Notes: generated by a model from the letters alone, not told the origin. DNA of 64,000 nucleotides from an uncultured Candidatus Saccharibacteria bacterium (GCA_964474435.1 CAYYSI010000001.1:62647-126646), one strand, 5' to 3'. Shown: positions 3,928-35,040, counted from the first letter of the stretch. Program-made: numbers and translations.

Positions 3928-4518
3928 ATGAAAAACTTTACCGGTGGTGATCGACGAGAAGGAGGGTTCCGAGGAGGTGATCGTGGTGGCAAACCGGGCT
4001 TCAAGAAGTCATGGGACAACAAAGGTGGCTTTGATCGCCCACAAGTGATGCACAAGGCAACCTGCAGTGAATGCGGCAAGCAGTGCGAAGTCCCATTTCG
4101 TCCGGACGGGTCCAAACCTATCTTTTGTAACGACTGCTTTAACAAAAAGCGCGACCCATCCGACACTCGCGGTTCTCGATCTGACTTTGCTCCCAAGCGA
4201 GACTTCAACGACCGTTTCGCTCCTCGTGCCGAATCTCGTGACTTCCGCTCCGATGCTCGCCCTGCATTCAAATCCACTCCCGACAACACCGGCAAACAAC
4301 TCTCCGAGATCTCAATGAAACTCGATCGACTTATTGCTGCAATGGAAAAGATGACCGCACCAGCATCTGCACCAAAGGCGGCAAAAGAAATCCCCGACCT
4401 GCCTGCGCAGCCAGGATCTGCGCTCATCAAAGTATCAAAGCCAAAGGCTGAGAAGAAAGCTGTTAAGAAAAAGGTGGTTGCGAAAAAGAAGAAATCGCTT
4501 TTAATAAGTAGTTCATGA
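3928..4518 (+). CDS. CxxC-x17-CxxC zinc-ribbon protein with RGG-rich N-terminus and Lys-rich C-terminal tail (putative nucleic-acid binding)
   Basis: CSEC-(17 residues)-CNDC fits the CxxC-x17-CxxC zinc-ribbon pattern exactly. The N-terminus has GGDRREGGFRGGDRGG repeats, and the C-terminus is KAEKKAVKKKVVAKKKK. Confidence 0.6.
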   Translation: MKNFTGGDRREGGFRGGDRGGKPGFKKSWDNKGGFDRPQVMHKATCSECGKQCEVPFRPDGSKPIFCNDCFNKKRDPSDTRGSRSDFAPKRDFNDRFAPRAESRDFRSDARPAFKSTPDNTGKQLSEISMKLDRLIAAMEKMTAPASAPKAAKEIPDLPAQPGSALIKVSKPKAEKKAVKKKVVAKKKKSLLISSS

Positions 4519-4546
4519 ATTAAATATTAAGTGATTAACTTTTAAT

Positions 4547-4575
4547 TTGACTTAAAATAATTATAGGTATATAGT
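4547..4575 (+). promoter_or_regulatory. promoter TTGACT-17-TATATAGT immediately upstream of the Fic / Type I R-M operon (leaderless-type)
   Basis: TTGACT at 4547-4552 and TATAGT at 4570-4575; ATG at 4582, leaving only 6 nt between the -10 and the start codon. Confidence 0.5.
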
Positions 4576-4581
4576 CTTTCT

Positions 4582-5715
4582 ATGGCTAAATACAAGTCAG
4601 GTATCTATAAGCAAAAGGAAGGTTATAAAAGCTTTTATCCATCCCAGGTAAATGGGGTATTTGAATGGACAGATAAGCGTATTGACGTGCTTCTTGCTGA
4701 TGCAATGCGATATCTTGGCGAGCTTAACGCATTTTCAAAATTGGTCCCTGATGTGGACTTTTTCATACAGATGCATATTGCAAAGGAAGCTACGACTTCG
4801 AGCAAGATAGAGGGCACGCAAACAAAACTTGATGAGGCACTTTTACCAGAGCTCGAAATTGACCCAGAAAAAAGAAATGACTGGGAAGAAGTTCAAAATT
4901 ATGTAAAAGCAATCAATTACTCCATTGCAGAGCTCAAAAAGCTTCCGCTCTCGATGCGGCTTGTAAAAGATACGCACAAAGTCCTCCTTTCAAGTGTGCG
5001 AGGATATACGAAACTACCCGGAGAGGTTCGCCGAAGTCAAAACTGGATTGGGGGCGCAACGCTCAGAGATGCAGTATTTATTCCTCCGCATCATGAAGAA
5101 GTGGCTGAGCTACTGAGTGATCTTGAGAAATTTTGGCACAATAAAGAAATTGATATTCCTGACTTGATCAAAATCGCGATTTCTCATTATCAATTTGAAA
5201 CGATCCACCCATTTCTCGATGGAAATGGCCGTATTGGTAGATTATTGATCACACTTCATCTCGTAAGTTTGGGAATTCTACAGAAACCTACACTCTATAT
5301 CTCTGACTTTTTTGAAAAACATCGCCCGCAATACTACGATGGTCTTTCGCGTGTCCGAGAAACAAATGATATCGAGCATTGGCTCCGTTTCTTTTTGACC
5401 GGAGTATTGGAAACTGCAAAAAATTCACGAGAAACATTGGAGAAAATCATCGACCTGCGCAAGAAATATGAAACTACTATCGAAAAAGGTATGGGTATCA
5501 AACGTCAAAAGCTGGGCAAAGAACTCTTGCGCCATCTTTTCTCCAAACCGATAGTGACGATCAGAGAAATAGAAGCAATGCTTTCTGTAACATTTCCCAC
5601 TGCCTCGGCAATCGCAAAAGACTTTGAAAGTTTGGGATTGTTTTCTGAAAAGACTGGGCTCAAAAAGGATCGAATCTTTTATTTAACAGACTATATCAAT
5701 CTCTTCAACAAATAA
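4582..5715 (+). CDS. Fic-family protein (AMPylator-type) with intact HPFx(D/E)GNGR motif and N-terminal inhibitory (S/T)xxxE(G/N) motif
   Basis: [12 protein letters not shown] is the canonical Fic active-site motif. TSSKIEGT fits the class-II inhibitory-helix motif. The gene is tightly linked to hsdM, with a 1-nt gap. Confidence 0.85.
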
Positions 5716-5716
5716 T

Positions 5717-7480
5717 ATGGAAAATTTAACTCAAAAAACTGCAATGGTCGCAATGATCTGGAACATAGCTGACATTCTCCGTGGAGGGTGGAAGCAGCAC
5801 GAGTACCAGGATGTCATACTTCCACTTGTTGTATTGAAGCGATTGGACGCTATTCTTGCCGATACAAAGGCAAATGTGTTGGAGAAAAATAATGAATATA
5901 AAGGAAAGATTAATGATCTTGATCCCATTCTCAAGAGAACAGCTAGGGCGCCTTTCTACAATACTTCGGAGTATGACTTCACAAACCTTTTGGGTGACCC
6001 GAAACATCTCGCAAAGAACTTCAAACGGTACATCAATGGATACAGCAAGAACATACAAGACATATTCGAAAAATTTGATTTCAATAAACAGCTCGAGCGT
6101 CTCGAAGGTGGTGATCTTTTGTTCTATGTTATCCAAGAGTTAAATAAAGTAGATCTGCACTCATCAAAGATAGACAATCATGAGATGGGACGCATATTCG
6201 AAGAACTTCTCCGTAAGTTTTCTGAAATGTCCAACGAAACTGCTGGAGAACACTACACGCCTCGCGATGTGATTAGTACGATGGTGGAGATCCTCCTTGC
6301 GCCTGATGCAAAGGATCTCAAGAAACCTCATGTTATCAAGAAAATATACGACCCTGCCTGTGGTACGGGTGGTATGCTTTCTGTTGCCAAAGATTACATT
6401 CTCGAACATATAAATCCAAAAGCAGATATCTTCCTCTATGGCCAAGAACTCAACTCGGTGACGTACGCGATGGCCAAGTCCGATATGTTGATCAAGGGGG
6501 ATGACCCTGACCTGATCCGCGGAGGAGAAAAAGACCATTCCAGGGCCAGTACGCTCGCTAATGATCAGTTTTTTGGGGAAGTATTCGACTACGGACTTTC
6601 AAACCCTCCATACGGTGTGGACTGGAAAAAAGACAAAGATGTGGTCGAACGTGAAGCGTCTCGCGGATACGCCGGGCGATTTGGTGCAGGTACCCCACGT
6701 ATCTCGGATGGACAACTGCTTTTCCTTCAGCATCTCGTCTCAAAAATGAAGCCAGAAGCCGATGGCGGCTCACGTCTTGCCATTGTCCACAACGGCTCAC
6801 CATTATTTACCGGCGATGCCGGGAGTGGTGAGAGTGAAATCCGTCGCTGGATCCTCGAGAAAGATCTGCTGGAGACGATTGTGGCATTACCTGACCAGCT
6901 CTTCTACAACACAGGGATCAACACCTATTTGTGGTACATCACCAACCGAAAGTCCAAAGAACGCAAAGGCAAGGTACAACTGATCGACGCGCGTGGATTC
7001 TTCAAGAAAACTCGCAAGAGTTTGGGTAGTAAACGTCAAGAAATCGACCCAGACTCAAAGAAAAAGATACGTGATCTCTATACCAACTTCGAAGAAAATG
7101 AACATTCAAAAATCTTTAAGACGACTGACTTTGCATACCGCCAGATTCAAGTCGAGCGTCCACTGATGGTAGATGGCAAAGTCTCAAAAAATAAAAAAGG
7201 AGAAATCGAGATAGATAAATCTCTTCGCGACTATGAAAACGTGCCATGGGGAACTGATGTCAATGAATACTTTGAGAAAGAAGTAAAACCCTATGTGCCT
7301 GATGCATGGATCAATACGTCAGTTGTCGATCACAAGGATGGTAAGGTAGGAGTGGTAGGATATGAAATTCCTTTTACTCGGTACTTCTACAAATACGAAG
7401 CACCGCGAAGTCTGGAGGCTATTGAGGGTAATATTGAAAAGGTTGAAAATGAATTATTGGAGCTTTTGAAGCAGTTGTAA
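5717..7480 (+). CDS. hsdM: Type I restriction-modification system, N6-adenine DNA methyltransferase subunit
   Basis: It carries the SAM motif DPACGTGGML and the catalytic LSNPPYG (NPPY). The 587-aa size is typical of HsdM. Confidence 0.9.
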   Translation: MENLTQKTAMVAMIWNIADILRGGWKQHEYQDVILPLVVLKRLDAILADTKANVLEKNNEYKGKINDLDPILKRTARAPFYNTSEYDFTNLLGDPKHLAKNFKRYINGYSKNIQDIFEKFDFNKQLERLEGGDLLFYVIQELNKVDLHSSKIDNHEMGRIFEELLRKFSEMSNETAGEHYTPRDVISTMVEILLAPDAKDLKKPHVIKKIYDPACGTGGMLSVAKDYILEHINPKADIFLYGQELNSVTYAMAKSDMLIKGDDPDLIRGGEKDHSRASTLANDQFFGEVFDYGLSNPPYGVDWKKDKDVVEREASRGYAGRFGAGTPRISDGQLLFLQHLVSKMKPEADGGSRLAIVHNGSPLFTGDAGSGESEIRRWILEKDLLETIVALPDQLFYNTGINTYLWYITNRKSKERKGKVQLIDARGFFKKTRKSLGSKRQEIDPDSKKKIRDLYTNFEENEHSKIFKTTDFAYRQIQVERPLMVDGKVSKNKKGEIEIDKSLRDYENVPWGTDVNEYFEKEVKPYVPDAWINTSVVDHKDGKVGVVGYEIPFTRYFYKYEAPRSLEAIEGNIEKVENELLELLKQL

Positions 7481-7484
7481 TCTT

Positions 7485-8189
7485 ATGTGCTACCATCATT
7501 TGCCCATAATTCTTATAGAAGGATCAGCAAGAGAGGGCTCACAATTTTGGGGTGCATTTTGGGGTGCGTTCTTAGCATTTATCTTTGGATTGATCGCTTA
7601 CCGGATTACTAAACGATGGGAGCGTTTCCTTCTTCATAAAAATTCATTGGCTAAAATGGAACGGGTTTTAAATAATCATTTGAATGAACTTGGTTTTATG
7701 GAATTTATTGTTAAGGATGCAAGAAAAAATTTAACAGAACGTAAGCTTACACCTGATAGAATATTGAAATTTGATATTCCGGAAGGGGTTGATATGGAAT
7801 TTGGTAGTCTGAGATTAGTAAATGATTTCATGGACTACAGAGCTACTGTTATTCGTTTTAACTATAACTCAAGATCACTAAATCATGTACTAGATCGATT
7901 TGATGAAATGTTACTAACAAACCCTACTCTTATTGCAGGTAATGCATCGTATGCAATAGAGATGCTTCAAAAATTTGAAGAAGACATACCAAAAGTTATT
8001 GAAAGCTTTAAGGAATTTCTAATGACTATTAGAATCTATATCCATAAAACCAGACAGGTAGAAAGCTTTTTCTATGGTGTTTCAAAAAATATATGGGAAT
8101 TTCAAATTACTGAAGAAGAATTAAAAAAGGAAAAGGAAAAATTTGAAACAGAAGTAAAAATGTTGCGCGAGAAAAGAGAGAAAAAATAA
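7485..8189 (+). CDS. hypothetical membrane-anchored protein embedded between hsdM and hsdS (orfX)
   Basis: ATG lies 5 nt after the hsdM stop, and the gene ends 2 nt before the hsdS start. One N-terminal TM helix (GAFWGAFLAFIFGLIAY) is followed by a predicted cytoplasmic region with a KE-rich coiled-coil tail. No motif was recognised. Confidence 0.5.
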   Translation: MCYHHLPIILIEGSAREGSQFWGAFWGAFLAFIFGLIAYRITKRWERFLLHKNSLAKMERVLNNHLNELGFMEFIVKDARKNLTERKLTPDRILKFDIPEGVDMEFGSLRLVNDFMDYRATVIRFNYNSRSLNHVLDRFDEMLLTNPTLIAGNASYAIEMLQKFEEDIPKVIESFKEFLMTIRIYIHKTRQVESFFYGVSKNIWEFQITEEELKKEKEKFETEVKMLREKREKK

Positions 8190-8190
8190 T

Positions 8191-9489
8191 ATGCAAACAC
8201 TCAGACTAACAAAAAAATACAAAACCTATCCTGAATATAAAGATTCTGGAGTTGAGTGGCTAGGAAAGATTCCTAAAGAGTGGGAATCTCAAAAAATTGT
8301 ATCTGTGTTTGATTTTCCAAATCAGAAAGTTACAGAAACAACTCATGAGCCACTATCTGTCACATATGACGGCATAAAAAGACAGATTGAAAACGCTGCA
8401 AAAGTTGCAGAAGGTAGTCTTAGAAAACATGTAGAAATAGGAGATATAGTCATCAACGGACGCTCTGATAGAAAAGGCGCAGTAGGTATGTCTGAATATG
8501 ATGGGGGCGTGTCTCTTGTATACAATGTACTAAGGAAACGAAACAAAGAATTTGATTCAAAGTATTTCCATTACCTTTTCAGAAGTAAACTATTCTCAGA
8601 GGAGTTTTATCGCTGGGGGCGAGGTATCGTTGATGATCTTTGGACTACTCGCGAAAGCGAAATGAAGAGAATTTTTATTACTGTCCCGGAAATGACAGAT
8701 CAAACAAAAATCGCAAAATATCTCGACGAAAAAACATCACTTATTGACCAAACCATCTCAAAAAAACAAAAACTGATCGAGCTGCTGCGCGAGAAGCGGA
8801 TGGCGGTAATTAATCAGGCAGTGACAGAAGGTTTAAATCCGGATACTGAGATGATGGAGAGTGGTGTAGAGTGGATTGAGAAGATTCCTAAGGTGTGGAA
8901 GGTTCTACCTTTGAAGTATAATATTGAAATTCAAGAAGGGCCTGGAATCATGGCTGAGGATTTTAAAGAAATTGGAGTTCCTTTATTGAGAATTAAAAAT
9001 CTTAAAAACGGTTTTGTTGACCTGGAAGGTTCTAATTTCCTTGATCCTAAAAAAGTTCAAAGTAAATGGAATCATTTTAAATTACAACAAGGCGATCTGC
9101 TGATCAGCGGAAGTGCGTCTTCCGGCATAGTATCTGAAGTTACAGAAGAAGCTGTTGGTGCGATTGCATATACTGGACTAATTAGAATTTCTTCAAAAAC
9201 TCTACACAAACAATTTTTAAAAAATCTTCTAGATTCAAAATACTTTAACGAGCAAGTTGAGATACAAAAAGCGGGAACTGCAATGCAGCATTATGGACCT
9301 ACTCACCTAAAGAAAGTTGTTATCACTATTCCCTCATATGATGAACAAAAGAAGATTGCTTATTATCTTGATAAAAAGGTATCAGTTTTTAATGAAACCA
9401 TAGAGGTAATTGAGCAATCTGTTGAGTTATTACAAGAATTTAAATCGTCGCTCATTTCGAATGTGGTGACGGGAAAGGTTAAGGCATGA
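8191..9489 (+). CDS. hsdS: Type I restriction-modification system, specificity subunit (two target-recognition domains)
   Basis: The conserved repeat helices are duplicated (LDEKTSLIDQTISKKQKLIELLREKRMAV... and LDKKVSVFNETIEVIEQSVELLQEFKSSLI...), consistent with a tandem TRD architecture of 432 aa. Confidence 0.85.
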   Translation: MQTLRLTKKYKTYPEYKDSGVEWLGKIPKEWESQKIVSVFDFPNQKVTETTHEPLSVTYDGIKRQIENAAKVAEGSLRKHVEIGDIVINGRSDRKGAVGMSEYDGGVSLVYNVLRKRNKEFDSKYFHYLFRSKLFSEEFYRWGRGIVDDLWTTRESEMKRIFITVPEMTDQTKIAKYLDEKTSLIDQTISKKQKLIELLREKRMAVINQAVTEGLNPDTEMMESGVEWIEKIPKVWKVLPLKYNIEIQEGPGIMAEDFKEIGVPLLRIKNLKNGFVDLEGSNFLDPKKVQSKWNHFKLQQGDLLISGSASSGIVSEVTEEAVGAIAYTGLIRISSKTLHKQFLKNLLDSKYFNEQVEIQKAGTAMQHYGPTHLKKVVITIPSYDEQKKIAYYLDKKVSVFNETIEVIEQSVELLQEFKSSLISNVVTGKVKA

Positions 9490-10052
9490 TTAAAGAAGAA
9501 TTAATAGAATATAAACTTGATAATCTTCCTTATAGCTTTAGAAAATGGAGATATCTTGCAACATATAGAAATCAATGGGATTTTTTACCAAAAACTCTTA
9601 AAGATAGAATCGCTGAGCAGTTAATGACTGCAGATTATATAGTTACGTTAGATGAATGGTTAAAACCTGCTATTACAATAAAAGAAAGGCAAAGAGTTTT
9701 ATTGTTACAGATACTTGCATCTATTTATGAAGGCGTTTTAACTTATTTGGTTTCGGAAAAAATTAAAATTGATATTTCGGATAATAAGGCATTGAAAACA
9801 ATTTATGATAAATCAACTTTTTATGGAGAAAAAAGAACATTTAGGCCAACTTTACAATTAGCTTTTGATATGGGATTGGTTAGTGAATCTTGGAATTCAA
9901 AACTAGATAAGGTAGTTGAAATAAGAAATTGGGTTCATTTGTCAAATTCAGAAAAACCAGATATTTTACATTGGATTATGAATCGTACTTGTGAAGAACA
10001 CAGAAAAGAATTAGATTTATTTCGAGAATATATAAAAATAAAATTCGATTAA
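9486..10052 (+). CDS. hypothetical protein embedded between hsdS and hsdR (orfY); possible HEPN/Abi-like accessory
   Basis: The start overlaps the hsdS stop as ATGA. It is 188 aa and very AT-rich, with no ATPase motif. It contains R-x3-H (EIRNWVHLS), which only loosely resembles a HEPN Rx4-6H motif. It occupies the slot where PrrC-like anticodon nucleases sit in other Type I loci. Confidence 0.45.
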   Translation: MIKEELIEYKLDNLPYSFRKWRYLATYRNQWDFLPKTLKDRIAEQLMTADYIVTLDEWLKPAITIKERQRVLLLQILASIYEGVLTYLVSEKIKIDISDNKALKTIYDKSTFYGEKRTFRPTLQLAFDMGLVSESWNSKLDKVVEIRNWVHLSNSEKPDILHWIMNRTCEEHRKELDLFREYIKIKFD

Positions 10053-10053
10053 T

Positions 10054-13017
10054 ATGACCACAAAAACTAACACAAAAGAATCAGGCTTTGAGGAATTCAT
10101 CGAGCAAGAGCTCGTGAGTCTCCATGGCTACCAGTCACGCCCGGCAAGTGTGTATGACAAGAAACTCTGTATGGATACTGAGCTGGTGTTGTCATTTGTG
10201 CGAAGTACTCAGCCAGATGTGTGGGCACAGCTCGAGGAGCAGCTCGGTGAAGAAACAGAGTCGAAGTTTTTGGCACGACTTGATGAAGAAATCACTTCAC
10301 GAGGGTTGCTGTCAGTGCTACGCGAAGGAATCACTGATCGTGGGGTGCGATTTCGGCTCGCCTTTTGGAAACCACAGAATGACATGAACCCAGAAACTAT
10401 TGCGGATTATGCGGGCAATATATTGAGTGTTATACGTCAGGTCAAATATAGTGAAAAGAATGAGAACTCCATTGATATGGTGCTCTTTGTGAATGGGCTG
10501 CCAATATTTACTGTCGAACTCAAAAATCAGTTTACAGGGCAAAACGTCATTAATGCCATCCAGCAGTACAAAACTGATCGCGATCAGAAGGAGAAGTTAT
10601 TGTCGTTCAAACGCTGCTTGACTCACTTTGCTGCAGATACAGACCAGGCGTATATGACGACCAGGTTGTCGGGGCTAACGACCTATTTCTTGCCATTCAA
10701 TAAGGGTGACAAAGGTTCTGCAGGTAATCCAGTAGCACCAAAAGGAAAGTATAAAACGTACTATCTCTGGGAAGAAGTATGGGCAAAGGATAGTATGTTT
10801 GATTTGCTTGGGAATTTCATACAGGAAGTTGTAGAAGAAAAAGAAGACAAAAACGGGCGACGTCGTCGTGATGAGAAGCTGATCTTCCCTCGGTATCATC
10901 AGCTCGATACGGTGCGACGAATTGTGCAGGACGCACGAGAATATGGATCGGGTAAAAATTATTTGATTCAGCATAGTGCAGGGTCTGGTAAAAGTAACAC
11001 GATCGCATGGGTAGCGCATCGGCTCGCAGAGCTGCACACTACACAAAACCACAATGTGTTTGATGGTGTCATCGTGATTACTGATCGACGCGTATTGGAT
11101 CGCCAATTGTCAGAGACGGTGAAGAGCTTCAGTCAGACGACGGGATTAGTAAAACATGTGGAATCATCCGCTGATTTGCGGGAAGCGCTGGAAGGTGGAG
11201 TAAAGATTATTACGAGTACGCTGCAAAAATTCCCAGTGATCGTGGAAACGATTGAAAAAACGGCAGGCAAGCGATTTGCAATTATCGTAGACGAAGCACA
11301 TTCATCACAGTCGGGTGAAAGTGCGGCTGATTTGCGACAGGCACTGACGTTGGATGAGGCAACACAACAAGAAGAAAAAGAAGAGAAGCTGTTCAAGACA
11401 GTAGAAGATCAGCTCATAGAACGCATGAAGGCGCGAAAGGTTTCGTCTCCAAACTTGAGCTTCTTCGCATTCACTGCAACACCAAAACAAAAGACACTTG
11501 AATTATTTGGAACAGAGGATCTGGTATCAGGGAAATTTAATCCGTTCTCACTATACTCAATGAAGCAGGCAATTGAAGAGAAATTCATTTTGGATGTATT
11601 GAAAAACTACACGATGTACGAGACGTATTTTGGCCTATTGAAAAAGGTAGAAGATGATCCAGAATTTGATAAGAAAAAGGCACAACGACTGATGGTGGGC
11701 TATGTAGAGCGACATGAGCATGTGATCGATAAAAAGGTCGCGATAATGGTCGAGCATTTTGAAGAAAAGATTGCACGGTTGATTGATGGAAAGGCGAAAG
11801 CTATAGTGGTCACCAAATCACGCCTCCATGCAGTACGGTACAAAATCGCATTTGACAAATATCTCAAAGAAAAGGGGTATAAGCACAAATCATTAGTGGC
11901 TTTTTCTGGCACCGTTAAAGATGGTGATACAGAAGTTACTGAGGGACAGATGAATAAAGTCCCAGAAAGTCAGACCGCAGAAGAGTTCAAGAAAGATGAC
12001 TATAAATTTCTCATTGTGGCTGAAAAGTTTCAAACAGGCTTTGATCAGCCGTTGTTGTCAGTCATGTATGTTGATAAAAAATTGGGAGGAGTAAATGCGG
12101 TACAGACCCTTTCACGATTGAATCGCACGACATATGACAAGGATGAAACATTTGTGCTCGATTTCGTCAACGAGACTGACGATATTAAGGAGGCATTTCA
12201 GCCCTACTATACAACGACGATTTTGTCAGAAGCGACCAACCCAAATATTTTGCATGATCTGGAGCGTGATGTGCGAAACTTTAAATTCTTTAGCGATTTT
12301 GAAATCAATGGATTTGTAGAGGAGTATTTTGGAGGTGCGACGCCTGATAAACTCAACCATATCATTGATGGAGTTGTTGCCCGTATTCAAAATGAAAATC
12401 TCACTCAAGAAGAGATAGAAGGATTTAAATCAACTGGAAGTGATTATCTGCGAAAATATTCATTTATATCTCAAATTGTAACATTCGAAGACCCACAGCT
12501 TGAAAAGTTATATATTTTCTTGAAATTCTTGATAAAGAAGTTACCCAAATACCCTGATCCGTTGCCGTACGAAGTATTGGAAGCAGTTGATATGGAAAGT
12601 TATAAAATTGAGAAAAAAGTTGAGACAAACATTGCACTTGAAAACAAAGATGGTGAAATCGATCCAATGAGTGGAAGTGGTGATCGCAAGGGTGGTAGTG
12701 AGGAAGAGCTCGATATGCTTTCAAAAATTATTAAGGAAATAAATGAGCGCTATGGCACCAATTTCTCCGATACAGATCGAGTTATCTTGAATGATTTGAG
12801 TTTGCGACTTCTCAAAAATGAAATCTTACAGGGTTCAGTCAAAAACAATAGTAAAGATGCTGCAAAATTGAAGTTTGATCAAATGTTCCAAGACGAGCTC
12901 GTCGGCGTACTTGATAATCATTTCAGTCTTTATCAGAAATTGGATCAGAGTCCAGAACTCAAGAAGTTTGTGCAAGAAAAAGTGTTTGAGTACGTTATAA
13001 GGAAAATGGATAAATAA
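10054..13017 (+). CDS. hsdR: Type I restriction enzyme, restriction (helicase-nuclease) subunit
   Basis: An N-terminal PD-(D/E)xK nuclease motif (DMVLFVNGLPIFTVELK) is followed by Walker A QHSAGSGKSNT and a DEAH box (IIVDEAHSS). The protein is 987 aa. Confidence 0.9.
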   Translation: MTTKTNTKESGFEEFIEQELVSLHGYQSRPASVYDKKLCMDTELVLSFVRSTQPDVWAQLEEQLGEETESKFLARLDEEITSRGLLSVLREGITDRGVRFRLAFWKPQNDMNPETIADYAGNILSVIRQVKYSEKNENSIDMVLFVNGLPIFTVELKNQFTGQNVINAIQQYKTDRDQKEKLLSFKRCLTHFAADTDQAYMTTRLSGLTTYFLPFNKGDKGSAGNPVAPKGKYKTYYLWEEVWAKDSMFDLLGNFIQEVVEEKEDKNGRRRRDEKLIFPRYHQLDTVRRIVQDAREYGSGKNYLIQHSAGSGKSNTIAWVAHRLAELHTTQNHNVFDGVIVITDRRVLDRQLSETVKSFSQTTGLVKHVESSADLREALEGGVKIITSTLQKFPVIVETIEKTAGKRFAIIVDEAHSSQSGESAADLRQALTLDEATQQEEKEEKLFKTVEDQLIERMKARKVSSPNLSFFAFTATPKQKTLELFGTEDLVSGKFNPFSLYSMKQAIEEKFILDVLKNYTMYETYFGLLKKVEDDPEFDKKKAQRLMVGYVERHEHVIDKKVAIMVEHFEEKIARLIDGKAKAIVVTKSRLHAVRYKIAFDKYLKEKGYKHKSLVAFSGTVKDGDTEVTEGQMNKVPESQTAEEFKKDDYKFLIVAEKFQTGFDQPLLSVMYVDKKLGGVNAVQTLSRLNRTTYDKDETFVLDFVNETDDIKEAFQPYYTTTILSEATNPNILHDLERDVRNFKFFSDFEINGFVEEYFGGATPDKLNHIIDGVVARIQNENLTQEEIEGFKSTGSDYLRKYSFISQIVTFEDPQLEKLYIFLKFLIKKLPKYPDPLPYEVLEAVDMESYKIEKKVETNIALENKDGEIDPMSGSGDRKGGSEEELDMLSKIIKEINERYGTNFSDTDRVILNDLSLRLLKNEILQGSVKNNSKDAAKLKFDQMFQDELVGVLDNHFSLYQKLDQSPELKKFVQEKVFEYVIRKMDK

Positions 13018-13469
13018 TGAAAAAAGAAAGAACGATTATAACCGAAGATTTTGTACAACGAAGCGTTATTAGGTATCTCGAAAAGAACGGCTGGAGCAAA
13101 TCATTGAAAAGTGCTGAACTGTGGGAACAGGGAGTAGATATTAAGGTTTGTAATAACAAGTTCTCACGATATTGGCTTATTGAAGCAAAAGCCGATCCTT
13201 CAATTACAGTAAAGAGTCCTACAGGCAGTATGAGTAGTAGTTTCAATTCTGCTTTGGGTCAAATAATAACGAGGATGCACACAAAAGGTGCTAGAGGATA
13301 TAAATATCGTTATAAATATGGCATAGCTTTCCCTGTGTCATTTAAGAAAATGGTTTTGAGAAAAATTCCGTATGACGTAATGGATAAACTGAATCTTTAT
13401 TTGTTTTTCGTTAATGAAATTGGGAATATTGAGGTGTATGATTGGCGTATTGTAAGAAAATTAAAATAA
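13017..13469 (+). CDS. stand-alone PD-(D/E)xK nuclease-fold protein (HsdR-N / Mrr-like), translationally coupled to hsdR (orfZ)
   Basis: The start overlaps the hsdR stop (TAATG). The motif GVDIKV...WLIEAKAD fits a D...(D/E)xK restriction-endonuclease-like core. The protein is 150 aa. Confidence 0.5.
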   Translation: MKKERTIITEDFVQRSVIRYLEKNGWSKSLKSAELWEQGVDIKVCNNKFSRYWLIEAKADPSITVKSPTGSMSSSFNSALGQIITRMHTKGARGYKYRYKYGIAFPVSFKKMVLRKIPYDVMDKLNLYLFFVNEIGNIEVYDWRIVRKLK

Positions 13470-13957
13470 TTATGCCCCTCCATCCCGAAACAACTATTGG
13501 ACACATTCATCTCACTGTCAGCGACCTTGAGCGAGCACTTGGATTTTATCGTGACTTGCTGGGGTTTGAAGTCACGGCGAAGTATGGAGATCATGCAGTA
13601 TTTCTTTCGGCGGGAGGGTACCATCACCACATAGGGCTCAATACATGGGCAGGGAAAGGGGTGACACCGCCACCAGAGGGGCACACGGGGCTGTATCATG
13701 CAGCAATATTGTTTCCGAGCCGCAAGGCATTGGCAACAGTGCTCAAGCATCTCATGGACAACGGATACCCAATCGATGGGGCGTCTGATCATGGAGTATC
13801 AGAGGCGATATATTTGCATGATCCAGACCGAAATGGTATCGAGCTCTACTGTGACCGCCCAAAGGAAACGTGGAAGGTAAATAATGACGGACTTGTTGAG
13901 ATGGATACCAAGCCGCTCGATATCGATGACTTGCTCGCCCAGGCAGATATAGACTGA
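13442..13957 (+). CDS. VOC-family protein (glyoxalase / bleomycin-resistance / extradiol-dioxygenase fold)
   Basis: IGHIHLTVSDLERALGFYRDLLGFEV...GYHHHIGLNTW is a typical VOC/glyoxalase-I-like signature. Confidence 0.75.
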   Translation: MAYCKKIKIIMPLHPETTIGHIHLTVSDLERALGFYRDLLGFEVTAKYGDHAVFLSAGGYHHHIGLNTWAGKGVTPPPEGHTGLYHAAILFPSRKALATVLKHLMDNGYPIDGASDHGVSEAIYLHDPDRNGIELYCDRPKETWKVNNDGLVEMDTKPLDIDDLLAQADID

Positions 13958-13994: not shown

Positions 13995-15152
13995 ATGTCC
14001 AAAACGAAGGTATTGCTGCTCATAACGGTGTTTATCGACATCATCGGGCTCGGGGTGATCATCCCGGTATTGCCATTTTATGTCCAAGGATTTGGCGTAT
14101 CTGACGCAGTGGTGACGGTGCTGTTTGCGGTGTATGCGCTTCTCTCATTTCTCTCGGCACCATTTCTCGGGTCGCTGTCGGACAAGATCGGGCGACGGCC
14201 AGTGCTCGTCGTGAGTATCGCAAGTAGTGCGGTCGGGTGGCTCGTCTTTGCATCGGCGCACAGCATTTGGGTACTCTTTCTCGGTCGTATCATCGACGGA
14301 CTTGCTGCCGGCAACATCACGAGTGCACAGAGTGCGCTTGCCGATATTGCACGAGATGACAAGGAGCGCACGGTCAACATGGGACTCTTTGGTGCACTGT
14401 TTGGTGTTGGGTTTATCGTGGGGCCGGCGATCGGAGGACTGCTTGCGCATGTGGGGACGACGGCACCATTTTGGTTTGTGGGAATACTTGCATCCCTCAA
14501 TGCAGTCTTTGCGTATTTCATGTTGCCAGAGACACATCATGCCAAGGATCATCACAAGAAACTTTCGTACAATCCATTTATACCGATCCGCGACGGTTTT
14601 CGCAAACCAGAGATGCGCAAACTCTTTGCGACATGGACTGTGTTTGGGATCGCACTGTCGCTGCAGCAAAGTAGCTTTTCGCTCTACATGGCGCGCGTCT
14701 TTGGGGTTACGGCAACGACGATTGGGATTGTGTTTGGGTTGATCGGCGTACTCATTGTCATCAACCAGCTCGTGTTGCTCAAGCGGGTATGGTTTCGGTT
14801 TGGGTCGCAGATGCAGATCGCACAGATCATGGCAGTCGTCTTTGCGATCGGTATGTTGCTGCAGTCTGCGCCACTTGTCGTCATGCTCGTCATGGGGATT
14901 ATTGCAACGACGATCGGGCAAGGTACGCTGCGCGCAGTATATGGTGGACTGATCGCGAATGCGTCTGCGGCAAAACGAGGAGAGTACATTGGTATCTCTG
15001 CATCGCTCATGTCGCTCTCGATGGTGATTGGCCCGTTCATTGCAACATTTCTCGTTGCCAAGCATCCAGGAATACCTCTTGTGATTGCGGGATTTCTCGG
15101 GCTCGTCATGTATCTCATGAATGTCAGGTGGAAGAAGTACCAGCTCGCGTAG
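13995..15152 (+). CDS. MFS transporter, DHA1 / TetA-like drug:H+ antiporter family
   Basis: About 12 TM helices. The loop 2-3 motif LSDKIGRRPVL (G-x-L-x-D-R/K-x-G-R-R) is present. GC content is clearly higher than in neighbouring genes. Confidence 0.8.
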   Translation: MSKTKVLLLITVFIDIIGLGVIIPVLPFYVQGFGVSDAVVTVLFAVYALLSFLSAPFLGSLSDKIGRRPVLVVSIASSAVGWLVFASAHSIWVLFLGRIIDGLAAGNITSAQSALADIARDDKERTVNMGLFGALFGVGFIVGPAIGGLLAHVGTTAPFWFVGILASLNAVFAYFMLPETHHAKDHHKKLSYNPFIPIRDGFRKPEMRKLFATWTVFGIALSLQQSSFSLYMARVFGVTATTIGIVFGLIGVLIVINQLVLLKRVWFRFGSQMQIAQIMAVVFAIGMLLQSAPLVVMLVMGIIATTIGQGTLRAVYGGLIANASAAKRGEYIGISASLMSLSMVIGPFIATFLVAKHPGIPLVIAGFLGLVMYLMNVRWKKYQLA

Positions 15153-27494: not shown

Positions 27495-28676
27495 GTGAAA
27501 TTTACTATTGAGAAAAAATTAGACGGCACACTCGCTCGCGCAGGTGAGATCGTGACTCCAAACGGTGTGATCAAAACACCGGCATTTGTCGTGGTTGGAA
27601 CCAAGGCTACCGTGAAGTCTTTGACCGCAGAACAGATCCGCAGCCTCAATGCGCAAGTTGTATTGGCAAATACCTATCACCTCTACTTGCAGCCGGGCAC
27701 AGATATCGTGGAGAAAGCTGGAGGGTTTGGGAAGTTTATGGATTGGCATGGGCCGACGATGACTGATAGTGGAGGATTTCAGGCATTCTCACTTGGTGCG
27801 GCATTTGGTAACAATGTTTCCAAAGTTGCGACCGGTAAAGAAGTGTCTGACATTTCTGCGACCAAAGGGCAGCTCGCGATTGTGACTGACGAAGGTGTGA
27901 CATTCAAGTCCCATCTCAATGGTGATAAGCATCTCTTTACTCCAGAGTCATCAATGCTCGCACAGTGGAAGATCGGTGCAGATATGATATTTGCATTTGA
28001 TGAATGCACGAGTCCGAGTGCGCCGTATGAATACCAACAAAAATCTCTCGCTCGTACCTATGAATGGGCGAAGCGCTCGCTCGATGCACACGAAGCATTG
28101 GACACAGAAAAGAAACAAGCACTTTTTGGGGTGATCCAAGGAGGGCGGTTTCAAGATTTGCGCGAGCAGGCTGCGCGAGACCTCGGTGCACTGCCGTTTG
28201 ATGGCTACGGCATCGGAGGGTCATTTACCAAAGAAGACATTGGTACTGCAGTCGGATGGGTGAATGCAATACTTCCAGAAAATAAACCTCGTCACTTGCT
28301 CGGCATCGGAGAACCAATCGATCTGTTTGAGGGAGTACTTGCGGGGTGTGATCTCTTTGACTGTGTGCTGCCGACACGCATTGGGCGACATGGGACACTC
28401 TTTACTCATGAGGGCAAGATGCACATCAAGAACGCGCAATATGTCGATGACTTTGGGCCACTTGAGGATGGTTGTACATGCTACACCTGTACACACCATA
28501 CTCGCGCATATATCGCGCATCTCTTCCGAGCAGACGAGATGACTGCAGGAACGCTTGCAAGTATTCATAACATTCACTTCCTCTTGCGATTGGTAGAAAA
28601 GATCAGAGAGAGTATTTTGAACGATACATTTTTTGAATATAAAAAGGAGTTTGTTGGGAGGTATTATAAAAAATAA
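27495..28676 (+). CDS. tgt: queuine tRNA-ribosyltransferase (tRNA-guanine transglycosylase)
   Basis: LANTYHLYLQPG, the catalytic Asp regions, and the zinc site CTCYTCTHHTRAYIAHL are present. The start codon is GTG. Confidence 0.9.
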   Translation: MKFTIEKKLDGTLARAGEIVTPNGVIKTPAFVVVGTKATVKSLTAEQIRSLNAQVVLANTYHLYLQPGTDIVEKAGGFGKFMDWHGPTMTDSGGFQAFSLGAAFGNNVSKVATGKEVSDISATKGQLAIVTDEGVTFKSHLNGDKHLFTPESSMLAQWKIGADMIFAFDECTSPSAPYEYQQKSLARTYEWAKRSLDAHEALDTEKKQALFGVIQGGRFQDLREQAARDLGALPFDGYGIGGSFTKEDIGTAVGWVNAILPENKPRHLLGIGEPIDLFEGVLAGCDLFDCVLPTRIGRHGTLFTHEGKMHIKNAQYVDDFGPLEDGCTCYTCTHHTRAYIAHLFRADEMTAGTLASIHNIHFLLRLVEKIRESILNDTFFEYKKEFVGRYYKK

Positions 28677-29153
28677 AACTGCCTCATAAAATTGAGGCAG
28701 CTCGTCTGATTGTTCCAATTGGTGTTGATAGAAAAATATTTTAACCTTTCCTTTAGTTATTATTTTCCATTTTTTTGGCAAGTCACCTTTTTTAAATGAT
28801 GCATCCCACCACCCTTGAGGATTCTTTTCTACACAAATAACTCCCTGTAACGTAACAATAAAATTACACCCGTCTTCAATGAGGTCAAACTCATTTGAAT
28901 AATGGATCATTCTATTGAGCAATGCGAGACCATCATCCAATCTCATCACATTCATTTTTCGCTCAGGATCTGAAAGGGAATATTCCATGGTAAGAATCTT
29001 TCGATCGAGTTGCGCAATGCTATCAGTGAGAGCTTTGCGTTTGAGAGATAAGGAATGAAGATTTGGTTCCAGAACAATTACTTTGATGGGGTATTGCGCA
29101 CAAAGTGTGTAGTACCCAAGGATAGAAACAACACACATACATATTTTTTTCAT
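28221..29153 (-). CDS. hypothetical ORF with signal-peptide-like N-terminus; its 3' 455 nt is antisense to tgt (questionable)
   Basis: The N-terminal ~150 aa (MKKICMCVVSILGYYTLCAQ...) lies in an otherwise gene-free AT-rich region (28677-29153) and looks protein-like. The frame only terminates deep inside tgt on the opposite strand, and it reads through the tgt terminator hairpin. Confidence 0.25.
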   Translation of the reverse strand: MKKICMCVVSILGYYTLCAQYPIKVIVLEPNLHSLSLKRKALTDSIAQLDRKILTMEYSLSDPERKMNVMRLDDGLALLNRMIHYSNEFDLIEDGCNFIVTLQGVICVEKNPQGWWDASFKKGDLPKKWKIITKGKVKIFFYQHQLEQSDELPQFYEAVLFFIIPPNKLLFIFKKCIVQNTLSDLFYQSQEEVNVMNTCKRSCSHLVCSEEMRDICASMVCTGVACTTILKWPKVIDILRVLDVHLALMSKECPMSPNACRQHTVKEITPRKYSLKQIDWFSDAEQVTRFIFWKYCIHPSDCSTNVFFGK

Positions 29154-29462
29154 ACATTACTTTTTCAATACTATATATAAAAATATGTATTTGTCAAATA
29201 AGGTGAATTATAAAAATAAAAATCCCCTGTTTAAGGGGATTTTACACTCAAGTCCGTTTTTATTTGCGGACAAGCTCCAAACTGTCGTACTTATCGTACT
29301 CACATGGCAAACCGGGAGATCGTTTGACCAAGGTAACTGTCAAATCATCACAAAGAACTTTTTCACTCGAATCCGTTAATCGACTCTTATTTATACATTA
29401 GCATCTTATATCAAATCTGTCAAGTATCTCCAAAACCCTTATTTTTCCTATATAATCAATCT

Positions 29463-31589
29463 ATGCAATTCAAACTCTCTGGAGAATACCAACCCGCAGG
29501 GGACCAGCCCAAGGCTATCGAGAAGCTCGTGAAGGGTCTCAAAGACGGCAAGCAGATGCAGACACTGCTGGGTGCGACTGCAACTGGGAAAACATTCACG
29601 ATGGCCAATATCATAGAGACTGTTCAAAAGCCGACGCTCGTGATCGCCCACAACAAAACGCTTGCGGCTCAGCTTGCACAAGAGTTCAAGAGTTATTTCC
29701 CAGACAACGTCGTGCACTACTTCGTGTCCTACTACGACTACTACCAGCCAGAGGCGTACATGCCGATCACAGATACGTTTATTGAAAAAGATGCCCAGAT
29801 CAACAAAGAAATTGATCGTCTCCGTCATGCGACCACTCAAGCATTGCTCACGCGCAAGGATGTGATCATTGTCGCATCGGTCTCGTGTATCTACGGTCTC
29901 GGATCTCCTGTCGAGTATGAAAAGACGAATTTCAAAATTGAAAAAGGCATGAAGCTCTCGCGTACCCAAGCAATGGAGCGACTCATCTCCATTCACTTTT
30001 CTCGTACAACTGCCGACCTCTCGAGTGGGACATTTCGTGCATTGGGAAATAAAATCGACATTATGCCGGTCTCTGACACGATCATGTATCAGATCGACTT
30101 CACTGGCAACGTCGTACAAAGCATCACCAAGATCGATCCAGTGTCTTCCAAGATTTTGAACGACGAAGAATTCGTCTATATCTTCCCGGCGAAACACTTC
30201 ATCACTAATGGCGAAGAAAAGGATCGTGCAGTGCGCGACATCCAACACGAGCTCGATCAGCAGCTCAAACATTTCGAAGTAGAAGGCAAGCTCCTCGAGG
30301 CAGAACGCATCAAACGTCGTACCAACTACGACCTCGCGATGATCAAAGAAATGGGGTACTGCTCCGGTATCGAAAACTACTCTCGGCATATGTCTGGCAA
30401 AGCTGTTGGCGAACCACCAGAAACACTGCTTTCATATTTCCCACACAAAGCTGATGGGAGCGCGGACTTTATGTTATTTATTGATGAGTCACACGTAACG
30501 ATCCCACAGTTGGGAGGAATGTATGCAGGAGACGCATCACGCAAACAGACACTTGTAGAGTTTGGATTCCGTTTGCCAAGTGCCAAAGACAACCGCCCGT
30601 TGAAGTTTGAGGAATTTAAAGAACGCATTGGACAAACAATATTTGTCTCTGCAACACCGGGTGCATATGAAAAGGAACATTCAGAACAAATCGTCGAGCA
30701 GATCATTCGCCCGACTGGACTTGTGGATCCACTCGTAGAAGTGCGGCCAATTCTCGAGGGAAGTCCAATCGCATTTCATTCTGGTGAGACTGAACAGGCC
30801 TATGACAAATCTGATGCACAGGCACGCAGTGACTATCCTGGCCAAGTCCAAGACTTCATCAACGAAGCTGAAAAGGAAATCAAGAGTGGCGGACGCGTCC
30901 TTGCAACGACACTTACAAAAAAAATGGCAGAAGACTTATCTGCGTATCTCAAAGAAAGAAAAATAAAATCCGAATATCTCCACTCCGATATCAAGACGAT
31001 TGAGCGCATTCAGATCATCACAAAGTTCCGAAAAGGGGAGTTTGATATTTTGGTCGGAGTGAACTTGCTTCGAGAAGGTCTTGATATGCCAGAAGTATCA
31101 CTCATCGGTATTTTGGACGCAGACAAGGAGGGATTCTTGCGTAGCGAAGTGTCATTGATCCAGACGATCGGGCGAGCCGCACGTAATGCAAATGGTCGCG
31201 TGATCCTGTATGCCGACAACATGACTGGCTCAATGGAGCGCGCGATAGGTGAGACCAGACGACGTCGTGATGTACAGCTTGCCTACAATGCCGAGCATGG
31301 CATCACGCCAAAAACTATCTCTAAGGTTATTCGCGATATCACCGAAGGCATGGAGACTGAGCATTCCAAGGCAGTGAATGCTGAGCTCGCACTCGATCTC
31401 GAACTCTTTGCGCAGATCGAAAAGGATCAAAAGGGAAGAAAGACGAAAGGTAAAAATCCAATCGAAAAGTTAATCAAGATCAAAGAAGTTGAAATGAAAG
31501 AAGCGGTGAAGCTCCTCGACTTCGAAACAGCGGCAATATTGCGTGATGAGATTGGCGTGTTGAGAGAAAAGACGTATATAAATCCTTAA
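29463..31589 (+). CDS. uvrB: excinuclease ABC subunit B
   Basis: MQFKLSGEYQPAGDQPKAIEKLVKGL...ATGKTFTMANII is the canonical UvrB N-terminus with a helicase Walker A motif. A C-terminal UVR domain is present. A TATAAT lies 7 nt before the ATG. Confidence 0.95.
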   Translation: MQFKLSGEYQPAGDQPKAIEKLVKGLKDGKQMQTLLGATATGKTFTMANIIETVQKPTLVIAHNKTLAAQLAQEFKSYFPDNVVHYFVSYYDYYQPEAYMPITDTFIEKDAQINKEIDRLRHATTQALLTRKDVIIVASVSCIYGLGSPVEYEKTNFKIEKGMKLSRTQAMERLISIHFSRTTADLSSGTFRALGNKIDIMPVSDTIMYQIDFTGNVVQSITKIDPVSSKILNDEEFVYIFPAKHFITNGEEKDRAVRDIQHELDQQLKHFEVEGKLLEAERIKRRTNYDLAMIKEMGYCSGIENYSRHMSGKAVGEPPETLLSYFPHKADGSADFMLFIDESHVTIPQLGGMYAGDASRKQTLVEFGFRLPSAKDNRPLKFEEFKERIGQTIFVSATPGAYEKEHSEQIVEQIIRPTGLVDPLVEVRPILEGSPIAFHSGETEQAYDKSDAQARSDYPGQVQDFINEAEKEIKSGGRVLATTLTKKMAEDLSAYLKERKIKSEYLHSDIKTIERIQIITKFRKGEFDILVGVNLLREGLDMPEVSLIGILDADKEGFLRSEVSLIQTIGRAARNANGRVILYADNMTGSMERAIGETRRRRDVQLAYNAEHGITPKTISKVIRDITEGMETEHSKAVNAELALDLELFAQIEKDQKGRKTKGKNPIEKLIKIKEVEMKEAVKLLDFETAAILRDEIGVLREKTYINP

Positions 31590-34989: not shown

Positions 34990-35040
34990 TAAAAAAGATC
35001 ACATGTTACATGTGATCTTTTGCAATTTTTCAGGAATCAA

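Follow-up and report, generated by a model that had tools for sequence, protein, structure and literature searches.

The window, the whole 64,000-nucleotide stretch from an uncultured Candidatus Saccharibacteria bacterium that was analyzed here, contains a Type I restriction-modification (R-M) operon that is led by a SoFic-like gene and carries the additional genes orfX, orfY and orfZ. We consider it reasonably probable that this functional-looking operon has a backbone that circulates in Patescibacteria-type genomes and slots that hold exchangeable cassettes, and that these parts together provide layered immunity. An earlier note on this DNA had described seven tightly spaced ORFs, and we found all seven on the plus strand, packed over 4582-13469 with every gap or overlap at 4 nt or less. 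The features are as follows.

4547-4575, plus strand: putative sigma-70-like promoter, TTGACT-17-TATAGT (consensus match)
4582-5715, plus strand: class II Fic AMP-transferase, SoFic-like, 377 aa (Pfam, PADLOC, motifs)
5717-7480, plus strand: hsdM, Type I N6-adenine methyltransferase, 587 aa (profiles, NPPY)
7485-8189, plus strand: orfX, cargo of the slot between hsdM and hsdS, no named family (hydropathy, homologue alignment)
8191-9489, plus strand: hsdS, specificity subunit with two target-recognition domains, 432 aa (profiles)
9486-10052, plus strand: orfY, cargo of the slot between hsdS and hsdR, predicted small all-helical HEPN-fold protein, 188 aa (model, fold comparison)
10054-13017, plus strand: hsdR, Type I restriction/translocase subunit, 987 aa (profiles, motifs)
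13017-13469, plus strand: orfZ, cargo after hsdR, predicted stand-alone PD-(D/E)xK nuclease, 150 aa (fold model, conserved triad)

The spacers along the operon are 1 nt between Fic and hsdM, 4 nt between hsdM and orfX, and 1 nt both between orfX and hsdS and between orfY and hsdR. The hsdS/orfY junction is a 4-nt ATGA overlap, and the hsdR/orfZ junction is a 1-nt TAATG overlap in which the start of orfZ overlaps the stop of hsdR. At 13472, 2 nt past the orfZ stop, a GC-rich glyoxalase/VOC gene begins, and therefore spacing alone sets no operon boundary. The VOC gene is of a housekeeping type, and the close spacing runs on into it. At the other end, the putative promoter sits in the sole real intergenic gap, with its -10 element ending 6 nt upstream of the Fic ATG. 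It was the top-scoring promoter-like site (10/12) on the plus strand between 4000 and 14200. Because the total of such sites in the region barely exceeds that in shuffled sequences (32 compared with 25 +/- 4.7), we read it as a consensus match and not as proof. Its geometry is of the leaderless type, as proposed earlier.

The Fic, HsdM, HsdS and HsdR proteins are canonical with intact motifs, and from their sequences we predict methylation and ATP-dependent restriction. Fic matched Pfam Fic_N (5e-25) and Fic (2e-17) as well as the PADLOC SoFic model (4e-116). Against the NCBIfam SoFic equivalog it scored 171.4 bits, under the 550-bit cut-off, which places it in the same family but not as an equivalog. 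The same chain carries both the 12-residue Fic motif (pattern HxFx(D/E)GNGRxxR; residue 209) and the inhibitory motif of class II, SSKIEG (pattern (S/T)xxxE(G/N); residue 73), bearing out the assignment as a class II Fic with an intact motif. SoFic has been reported as an abortive-infection AMPylating toxin (PMC12249575). The window protein resembles it in the PADLOC match and both motifs, and differs in its sub-threshold equivalog score and in being a fixed part of an R-M backbone; there is no small AS1-like gene downstream of it because hsdM starts at the 1-nt spacing given above. HsdM matched N6_Mtase (5e-59), HsdM_N (6e-25) and PADLOC MTase_I (3e-246) and carries NPPY at residue 296. HsdS matched Methylase_S in two stretches and PADLOC Specificity_I (1e-111) over residues 10-431, and its gene contains an internal 37-nt repeat at 8247/8862. 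HsdR contains HSDR_N, SWI2_SNF2, ResIII and T1R_D3-like domains by Pfam, an ELK nuclease motif at 155 and a DEAH box at 413; its match to TIGR00348 hsdR (4e-59, 200.8 bits) falls under the 284.55-bit cut-off of that subfamily model.

We found the Fic/HsdM/HsdR backbone again in six further loci. In five of these (L004, L006, L009, L060 and L071) Fic is paired with hsdM and the three proteins are 58-90% identical, and the sixth is an HsdR fragment with 73% identity. HsdS, by comparison, is just 30-38% identical between otherwise close operons. The five loci readable at the slots each hold different cargo, the contents being DUF2130, SduA_C (the Shedu nuclease domain), an AAA_15/21 ATPase, DUF4357 or nothing. 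The reverse was also observed, in that unrelated backbones, of Type I and even of Type III, share a cargo: L005 has an orfX homologue that is 67% identical beside an HsdM that is 24% identical, and L001 has an orfZ homologue that is 77% identical beside an HsdR that is 22% identical. Because close backbones differ in cargo and unrelated backbones share it, we conclude from these sequence comparisons that the operon is a stack of independently exchangeable cassettes and not the co-evolving seven-gene composite system that the earlier note had proposed. Near-identical backbones with different cargo illustrate cleanly how cassettes are exchanged slot by slot within an operon in nature, and no recombinase or repeat is in sight.

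The earlier note had tied its defence proposal to the conservation and context of orfX, orfY and orfZ, and both were found; nothing came up that the note had listed as refuting it. Each of the three is conserved as a coding gene (dN/dS about 0.05-0.08, or dS saturated), and homologues recur within or right after R-M operons, in 5/8 contexts, 6/8 contexts and 20/45 loci, respectively. For orfX, dN/dS was 0.06-0.08, indicating strong purifying selection, and 18 homologue clusters share 28 invariant columns. The protein was said to be membrane-anchored, and hydropathy agrees, placing one N-terminal transmembrane helix at residues 21-39 (hydropathy 1.76), followed by KRWER and a helical domain of ~190 aa. 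No match was detected in Pfam, PADLOC, NCBIfam or PHROG. Homologues of orfX lie in either slot of the Type I operons L060, L005, L069 and L071, and three of the eight distinct contexts are outside R-M.

The model of orfY is a single helical domain that fits the HEPN helical-bundle fold, with a Foldseek E of ~0.3 that is not significant. This is the kind of RNase-toxin fold that the idea of a toxin module in the PrrC slot had anticipated. The candidate motif, R147-N-W-V-H151, is an Rx3H, which falls one residue short of the canonical Rx4-6H; conservation of its R and H is at least 90%, with N after R, and E82 is invariant among 41 representatives. The gene is under strong purifying selection. 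In L004, L006, L009 and L068 the homologue sits between hsdS and hsdR, and in L063/L064 it separates Mod from Res of a Type III system. Six of eight informative contexts are embedded in R-M operons, and relatives outside R-M occur in L066 and L067. Searches of Pfam and NCBIfam gave no match, to an ATPase, a P-loop family or otherwise, and none was found in PADLOC v2.0.0. From the model and the conserved motif, we predict that orfY represents a new HEPN-fold family of metal-independent RNase toxins or effectors.

For orfZ, the modeled fold agrees with the proposed stand-alone PD-(D/E)xK protein: it is restriction-endonuclease-like, alpha/beta, with an invariant D/ExK, and its nearest fold is XisH (PDB 2OKF), the fdxN element excision controlling factor. 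Membership in the XisH family (PF08814) was rejected, as none of 26 members gave a Pfam match even at E <= 5; the window also differs in having no xisI/xisF partner, and orfZ adjoins R-M operons. The best PADLOC v2.0.0 match was PDC-M02B at a non-significant E of 0.02. The family is unnamed, under strong purifying selection and very conserved (67-84% identity over >270 clusters from many lineages). We found it in 45 loci among 185,579 species genomes, a rarity that makes it accessory rather than core. In 20 of the 45 loci an R-M gene is found on the same strand no more than 10 kb away, and R-M genes make up ~40% of upstream neighbors. The earlier note had coupled orfZ to Type I, and this specificity was not upheld: the gene is found behind Type III Res and M-S fusion genes just as often as behind Type I genes, and 25/45 loci have no R-M gene. 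In L033 a homologue is embedded between hsdS and hsdR. No conserved synteny was found on the downstream side, where 3/43 neighbors are recombinases. Some orfZ neighbors are housekeeping genes. Beside restriction enzymes that are themselves ~22% identical, orfZ is ~75% identical, which hints that it has a conserved accessory role alongside enzymes of Types I and III. The fold model and the recurrence suggest that orfZ is a new family, predicted to be DNases, found 3' of ATP-dependent Type I/III R-M operons.

The base composition of the operon also bears on its origin. The block is AT-rich relative to the flanks, as proposed (GC 0.391 compared with 0.460 in the remainder of the window), but the bias is a mosaic and not uniform. 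GC3 is 0.16 for orfY, 0.26 for orfX, 0.30 for hsdS, 0.31 for orfZ, 0.38 for Fic, 0.42 for hsdR and 0.47 for hsdM, compared with 0.49-0.64 in flanking genes; the cargo genes are consistently AT-richer than the backbone genes. Horizontal acquisition, also suggested earlier, is supported by composition, by the differing genomic contexts of the backbone and by an integrase that adjoins it in L071. Around the window block itself no recombinase, integrase or flanking repeat was found.

Embedding is commoner than the earlier view, with hsdR/M/S as the sole content of canonical loci, allows. Most genes nested in Type I R-M are defence genes or candidates for that role (Payne et al. 2024, 10.1101/2024.01.29.577857), and links to R-M systems are described for 16 or more HEPN clades, in some cases alongside Fic/Doc (Anantharaman et al. 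2013, PMC3710099). The prr locus (hsdM-hsdS-prrC-hsdR, EcoprrI) likewise has a HEPN-type nuclease gene between hsdS and hsdR, the nuclease domain of PrrC being itself HEPN, and prr-type operons often have a further link to Fic/Doc toxins (PMC3710099, PMC2610378), as Fic heads the operon here. Unlike PrrC and RloC, orfY is 188 aa long, lacks the N-terminal ABC-type NTPase domain, has an RNxxH motif and showed no sequence similarity to either family. The TgvAB genes of the Vibrio cholerae VPI-2 Type I R-M system are similarly embedded and co-oriented; they are an experimentally validated embedded defence, and embedded genes can be autonomous (PMC11411939). The HEC/PDC candidates of PADLOC, defined through guilt by embedding, are extra genes nested co-oriented in Type I operons, many of them nucleases or RNases, and the closest solved structure to HEC-08 (HEPN) is SO_3166/5YEP, as it is for orfY (10.1101/2024.01.29.577857). 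In contrast to these candidates, orfX, orfY and orfZ match no PADLOC v2.0.0 model; the survey of Payne et al. covered RefSeq v209, whereas all our finds of the three families came from metagenome assemblies and MAGs. The criterion of guilt by embedding, as published, makes defence candidates of three uncatalogued families, namely an Rx3H HEPN variant, a highly conserved small PD-(D/E)xK nuclease and a helical protein with a membrane anchor, from Patescibacteria-type MAG lineages that RefSeq-based surveys largely miss. Novelty is lower because defence-gene embedding in R-M operons is already established. Stacked defences are known from PrrC and from HEPN and Fic in R-M operons, and the families described here are new parts of a known pattern that extend current concepts without changing them.

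In the layered reading that we favor, the three junctions (between hsdM and hsdS, between hsdS and hsdR, and after hsdR) would be slots for single-gene accessory cassettes, each exchanged independently. The R-M enzyme would cut unmodified incoming DNA as the first layer, and Fic, orfY, orfZ and probably orfX would act as separate second-line modules of a toxin or abortive-infection type, presumably co-transcribed on a single transcript, co-inherited and co-mobilized with the R-M genes. The RNase and DNase activities, the anti-phage function, the single transcript and the triggers of the modules are what we infer. Several observations count against this reading: the short Rx3H motif and non-significant Foldseek match of orfY, the absence of a visible antitoxin or regulator for orfY or orfZ, the members of each family outside R-M, an orfX whose topology is the sole clue to its function, the lack of PADLOC matches for all three, and the close spacing that runs on into the VOC gene. 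An alternative that we hold possible but unlikely is that orfY, perhaps with orfX or orfZ, is kept latent on HsdRMS and freed to act as a suicide RNase once R-M is disabled by an anti-restriction protein of a phage. The PrrC slot and HEPN fold, the embedding of orfY in most informative contexts and the lack of a visible separate antitoxin gene, such that some partner must restrain a toxin, fit this idea. The missing NTPase domain does not, nor do relatives in the Type III system L063 and outside R-M, and close backbones that fill the slot with SduA_C or an AAA ATPase argue against a specific HsdR/M/S interface.

It is improbable that the genes serve selfish maintenance or mobility in place of immunity, with Fic, orfY and orfZ as addiction toxins stabilizing the island, or orfZ as an XisH-like excision/directionality factor in element movement: the window block lacks the recombinase, integrase or flanking repeat noted above, orfZ has no XisH Pfam match at E = 5, and recombinases are rare downstream of it compared with the R-M genes upstream. 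Equally doubtful is a reading of orfZ, possibly with orfX, as a conserved nuclease or membrane protein of the cell that merely neighbors an R-M insertion hotspot and is functionally unconnected to the operon. The high identity of orfZ over many clusters, the loci with no R-M gene, the housekeeping neighbors and the generally tight spacing here, as with the VOC gene, are compatible with this. Against it, the GC3 of orfZ is island-like (compared with 0.64 in the gene next door), its start overlaps the hsdR stop, synteny is not conserved on its other side, and it is embedded in L033. Its association with R-M in 20/45 loci is also well above the few per cent of a rough, uncomputed estimate for a ~1 Mb genome with one or two systems.

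We find it very improbable that Fic and orfY form a split control pair like MntA/HepT within the R-M operon, with orfZ as a partner nuclease for Type I/III translocating enzymes. By analogy with MNT and HepT, AMPylation by Fic may silence the orfY HEPN RNase, and phage interference with the R-M/Fic module may free it, giving a minimal NTPase-free analogue of PrrC. Compared with the HepT/MntA (HEPN-MNT) type VII toxin-antitoxin systems (SO_3166, 5YEP; 7AE2; 8XDJ), no MNT nucleotidyltransferase partner lies beside orfY, which also has an extra N-terminal ~60 aa, the Rx3H spacing and 12-18% sequence identity. A partner nuclease independent of R-M type would explain why orfZ is far more conserved than its partners.

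Seven co-oriented genes fill the block at 4582-13469, just as the earlier note had described, and two host-type genes follow them.

4582-5715, + strand, Fic
5717-7480, + strand, hsdM
7485-8189, + strand, orfX
8191-9489, + strand, hsdS
9486-10052, + strand, orfY
10054-13017, + strand, hsdR
13017-13469, + strand, orfZ
13472-13957, glyoxalase/VOC gene, the next gene
13995-15152, MFS transporter, after the VOC gene

The block junctions consist of spacers of 1, 4, 1 and 1 nt, an ATGA overlap between hsdS and orfY, and a TAATG overlap between hsdR and orfZ. The sole real intergenic gap upstream (4519-4581) contains TTGACT-17-TATAGT at 4547-4575, the top + strand promoter-like site of the region, with its 3' end 6 nt before the Fic ATG. 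The single promoter proposed in the earlier note is present as a best-scoring site, but promoter-like sites as a class were not above shuffled expectation (32 vs 25 +/- 4.7), nor were terminator-like sites (8 vs 7.6). Because of this, we reasonably infer co-transcription from the geometry of the block, and do not count it as a result. The VOC gene starts 2 nt past the orfZ stop, and thus tight spacing alone sets no end to the unit. Its end is marked instead by composition, with GC3 rising from 0.31 in orfZ to 0.64 in VOC. No terminator was found between the orfZ stop and the VOC gene at 13472, and transcription of the operon may read through into VOC and then MFS. At the borders of the block we found neither flanking direct repeats nor tRNA genes nor recombinases, and the flanks are ordinary cellular genes encoding DsbA-like, GT2 glycosyltransferase, treble-clef zinc-finger, VOC and MFS proteins. 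The zinc-finger gene, directly upstream at 3928-4518, encodes a Gly/Arg-rich protein with a zf_Tbcl_2 domain (3e-16), a domain that one downstream neighbour of an orfZ relative also carries.

HsdM, HsdS and HsdR gave strong matches to their Pfam, PADLOC and NCBIfam models, and the Hsd proteins retain NPPY, the ELK nuclease motif and the DEAH box. The first gene is indeed a class II Fic with an intact [12 protein letters not shown], and it also carries the N-terminal inhibitory motif SSKIEG. It matched the PADLOC SoFic model at 4e-116 and fell under the NCBIfam SoFic equivalog cut-off (171 vs 550 bits). Sofic is reported to be an AMPylating abortive-infection toxin (PMC12249575).

The three accessory genes (hereafter cargo) had no significant family in Pfam, NCBIfam, PADLOC or PHROGs. 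When every member of each family was also scanned singly at lax thresholds, nothing appeared beyond lone weak DUF4145, Mrr_cat and NOV_C matches, and profile searches of PDB sequences found no meaningful relatives. All three were absent from PLSDB plasmids; among IMG/VR viral contigs, orfX and orfY were absent and orfZ occurred once, itself near R-M genes. The cargo genes are real genes under constraint: dN/dS against the nearest relatives was ~0.05-0.08 for orfX and orfY, and for orfZ dN was 0.14-0.24 with synonymous sites saturated. Some homologues of each also lie in R-M neighbourhoods, those of orfX in Type I loci and those of orfY and orfZ in both Type I and Type III loci.

Gene orders at loci carrying relatives of block genes (L numbers are our handles for these loci; M, S and R are the hsd genes)
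L060: Fic, M, orfX, S, SduA_C, R
L071: integrase ... Fic, M, orfX, S, AAA_15/21, R
L005: M, NYN, S, orfX, DUF3800, R
L069: GmrSD, M, 277 aa, S, orfX, SMODS-AGS_C, SLATT_4, R
L063/L064 (Type III): Mod, SduA_C, orfY-like, AHJR-like, Res
L001: M, Abi_alpha, S, Bro-N, R, YgjP, RadC, orfZ

The orfX family comprises 18 homologue clusters, in whose alignment 28 columns are invariant. The protein has one hydrophobic helix (residues 21-39) followed by KRWER, which suggests that its helical domain of ~190 aa would be cytoplasmic. Its profile matched coronavirus S2 heptad repeats among PDB sequences, which we treat as an artefact of helical composition, and kinship with orfY was ruled out by hhalign against the orfY family (prob 3%). 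Three orfX contexts lacked R-M genes: an island between two serine recombinases, a position beside SocA_Panacea, and an ordinary neighbourhood. In L069 (615-11680), a Type I operon with a GmrSD_N gene upstream, the hsdS-hsdR gap holds the orfX relative together with a SMODS/AGS_C cyclase and SLATT_4, a CBASS-like pair nested in an R-M operon.

The orfY family is small, with 8 clusters in a word-indexed search and 49 at E <= 1e-3 among 1.84 billion representatives. An AlphaFold model built from 8 sequences is all-helical (pLDDT 80, pTM 0.78), and in Foldseek HepT/MntA-type HEPN toxins ranked first (prob up to 0.99), at a non-significant E of ~0.3. Y51 and E82 do not vary among the 41 representatives, and conservation reaches 90% or more at D50, R147 and H151, with R-N-x-[IVL]-H as the family motif. 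This agrees with the HEPN active site in the polar residue after R and the upstream acidic residue (PMC3710099), whereas the spacing is Rx3H rather than Rx4-6H. We conclude that orfY belongs to the HEPN fold class, with a motif that only nearly matches. Weak matches of its profiles to eIF3c and a plant NRG1 CC-R bundle among PDB sequences are treated as helical-composition artefacts. Relatives of orfY occupy the hsdS-hsdR slot in L004, L006/7/8, L009 and L068; L066 and L067 show no R-M genes, and L010 and L065 are too short for a context call. Within the Type III system of L063 (325-6983; L064 is alike), three genes are nested, coding for a Shedu SduA_C protein, a relative of orfY at 42% identity and an AHJR-like nuclease of 99 aa.

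In orfZ, D41, E56 and K58 are invariant, as are 59 of 150 columns across 26 sequences, and the family is very conserved (67-84% identity over >270 clusters). Named sources of its relatives are Nomurabacteria, Paceibacterota, Gracilibacteria, Colwellbacteria and Saccharibacteria; at lower identity, other phyla and one DPANN archaeon are represented. Source names of this kind on close homologues are what place the window, by inference, in Patescibacteria. Relatives at 46-78% identity also occur in MAGs labelled Gammaproteobacteria, Acidobacteriaceae, Methylomirabilota and Pacearchaeota (L024, L034, L036, L039, L040, L042-L044, L049, L050, L054 and L056), reflecting either wide horizontal spread or doubtful labels. 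Type I or III genes lie within 10 kb of orfZ at 20 of 45 genome loci, all on the orfZ strand, upstream of it in 17 of these 20 and directly adjacent in 9. At the other 25 loci no R-M gene was seen, and the neighbours include some housekeeping genes. ResIII-type R subunits or M-S fusions account for most of the genes tightly coupled upstream. In the pooled Pfam counts at positions -1 and -2, R-M domains predominate, and Shedu, GmrSD, OLD-type or RT genes turn up occasionally. The nearest fold of orfZ is XisH, and a scan of all 26 aligned sequences gave no XisH match even at E <= 5. Large serine recombinases (447-456 aa) lie convergently 2-9 nt after orfZ relatives at L026:692-2059, L030:2948-4288 and L032:10463-11812, pairs that recall XisH/XisF given that fold match; in L026 and L030, Type I R-M genes lie just past the recombinase. 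A core housekeeping role for orfZ was ruled out by its rarity among species genomes, its lack of conserved synteny and its island-like composition.

We compared loci by percent identity to the window proteins, and listed what each carries in the three junction slots.

Backbone identity (%) and cargo at related loci (slots in the order M-S; S-R; after R)
L006: Fic 90, HsdM 82, HsdR 81; cargo DUF2130; 146 aa + orfY; DUF4357
L060: Fic 82, HsdM 81, HsdR 79; cargo orfX; SduA_C; none
L071: Fic 83, HsdM 68, HsdR 81; cargo orfX (40%); AAA ATPase
L004: Fic 61, HsdM 77, HsdR 72; cargo DUF2130 + 104 aa; orfY; distant orfZ-like (36%)
L009: Fic 58, HsdM 84, HsdR at contig end; cargo none; orfY

The converse was seen in L005, where orfX is 67% identical to the window copy and HsdM 24%, and in L001, where orfZ is 77% identical and HsdR 22%. 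In L071 (5400-6098), orfX occupies the same slot of the same backbone at 40% identity, compared with 83% for Fic and 81% for HsdR; in L068 the orfY relative (964-1554) is 27% identical and the HsdR fragment 73%. Such cargo has either evolved much faster than the backbone or been replaced by distant alleles. Cargo and hsdS are more AT-rich than Fic, HsdM and HsdR in every genome examined (window, L060, L071, L005), whatever the backbone GC; in L060, GC is 0.35-0.38 vs 0.49-0.50. The picture is of an R-M backbone that moves horizontally, with junctions serving as exchange points for independent single-gene modules, presumably through recombination in conserved flanking hsd sequence. Because cargo is swapped, a single system in which all seven genes co-evolve is ruled out. 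The composite defence system proposed earlier holds as a set of embedded candidate defence genes, but their integration into a single unit was overstated.

The reading best supported, and one we consider fairly probable, is layered defence. Restriction by HsdRMS would act first, and autonomous toxin-type modules (the Fic AMPylase, the putative HEPN RNase orfY, the putative PD-(D/E)xK DNase orfZ and the membrane protein orfX) would back it, with restriction genes and modules expressed and inherited together. That orfY instead guards restriction as PrrC does seems unlikely. Its position, shared with PrrC, and its fold fit such a role, but it has no NTPase domain, which rules out membership in PrrC/RloC; moreover, its relatives also occur in Type III and non-R-M contexts, and unrelated genes replace it in the slot.

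Two further alternatives are less probable still. A role in mobility or addiction, including XisH-like excision for orfZ, would draw on the fold match and on the recombinases adjoining orfZ in three loci, but it does not fit the window and we consider it very unlikely. That orfZ is a mere neighbour of the operon is similarly improbable: its base composition speaks against this, as do an overlap with the hsdR stop, the small number of species genomes that have it and the enrichment of R-M genes around it.

A 2013 catalogue listed HEPN genes that lie inside R-M operons, in some cases alongside Fic/Doc toxins; it tied 16 or more HEPN clades to R-M and put forward multi-pronged defence on the model of PrrC (PMC3710099). 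Payne et al. found embedded genes to be common in BREX, DISARM and Type I R-M operons, reporting 3,231 families and 145 curated candidates, several of them validated, among which is a HEPN protein that, like orfY, has 5YEP as its nearest structure (10.1101/2024.01.29.577857). TgvAB is a Type I-embedded system with experimental proof (PMC11411939). Given these precedents, the window locus is a further instance of a known pattern, and the earlier interpretation, largely right, claimed too much novelty for the block as well as too much integration. What is new is three families with no entry in Pfam, NCBIfam, PHROGs or PADLOC v2.0.0, clear evidence that nearly identical backbones exchange cargo slot by slot, and a highly conserved small predicted nuclease (orfZ) trailing Type I and Type III enzymes.

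A 24-nt inverted repeat (7491-7514 / 10772-10795, 88% complementary) pairs the start of orfX with the interior of hsdR, probably by chance. Two more 1-kb segments of low GC (0.36) lie in the window at ~28500-29500 and ~35000-36000. The ORF at 35041-36033 (- strand) has no PDB relative, and the gene at 27495-28676 encodes a tRNA-guanine transglycosylase.
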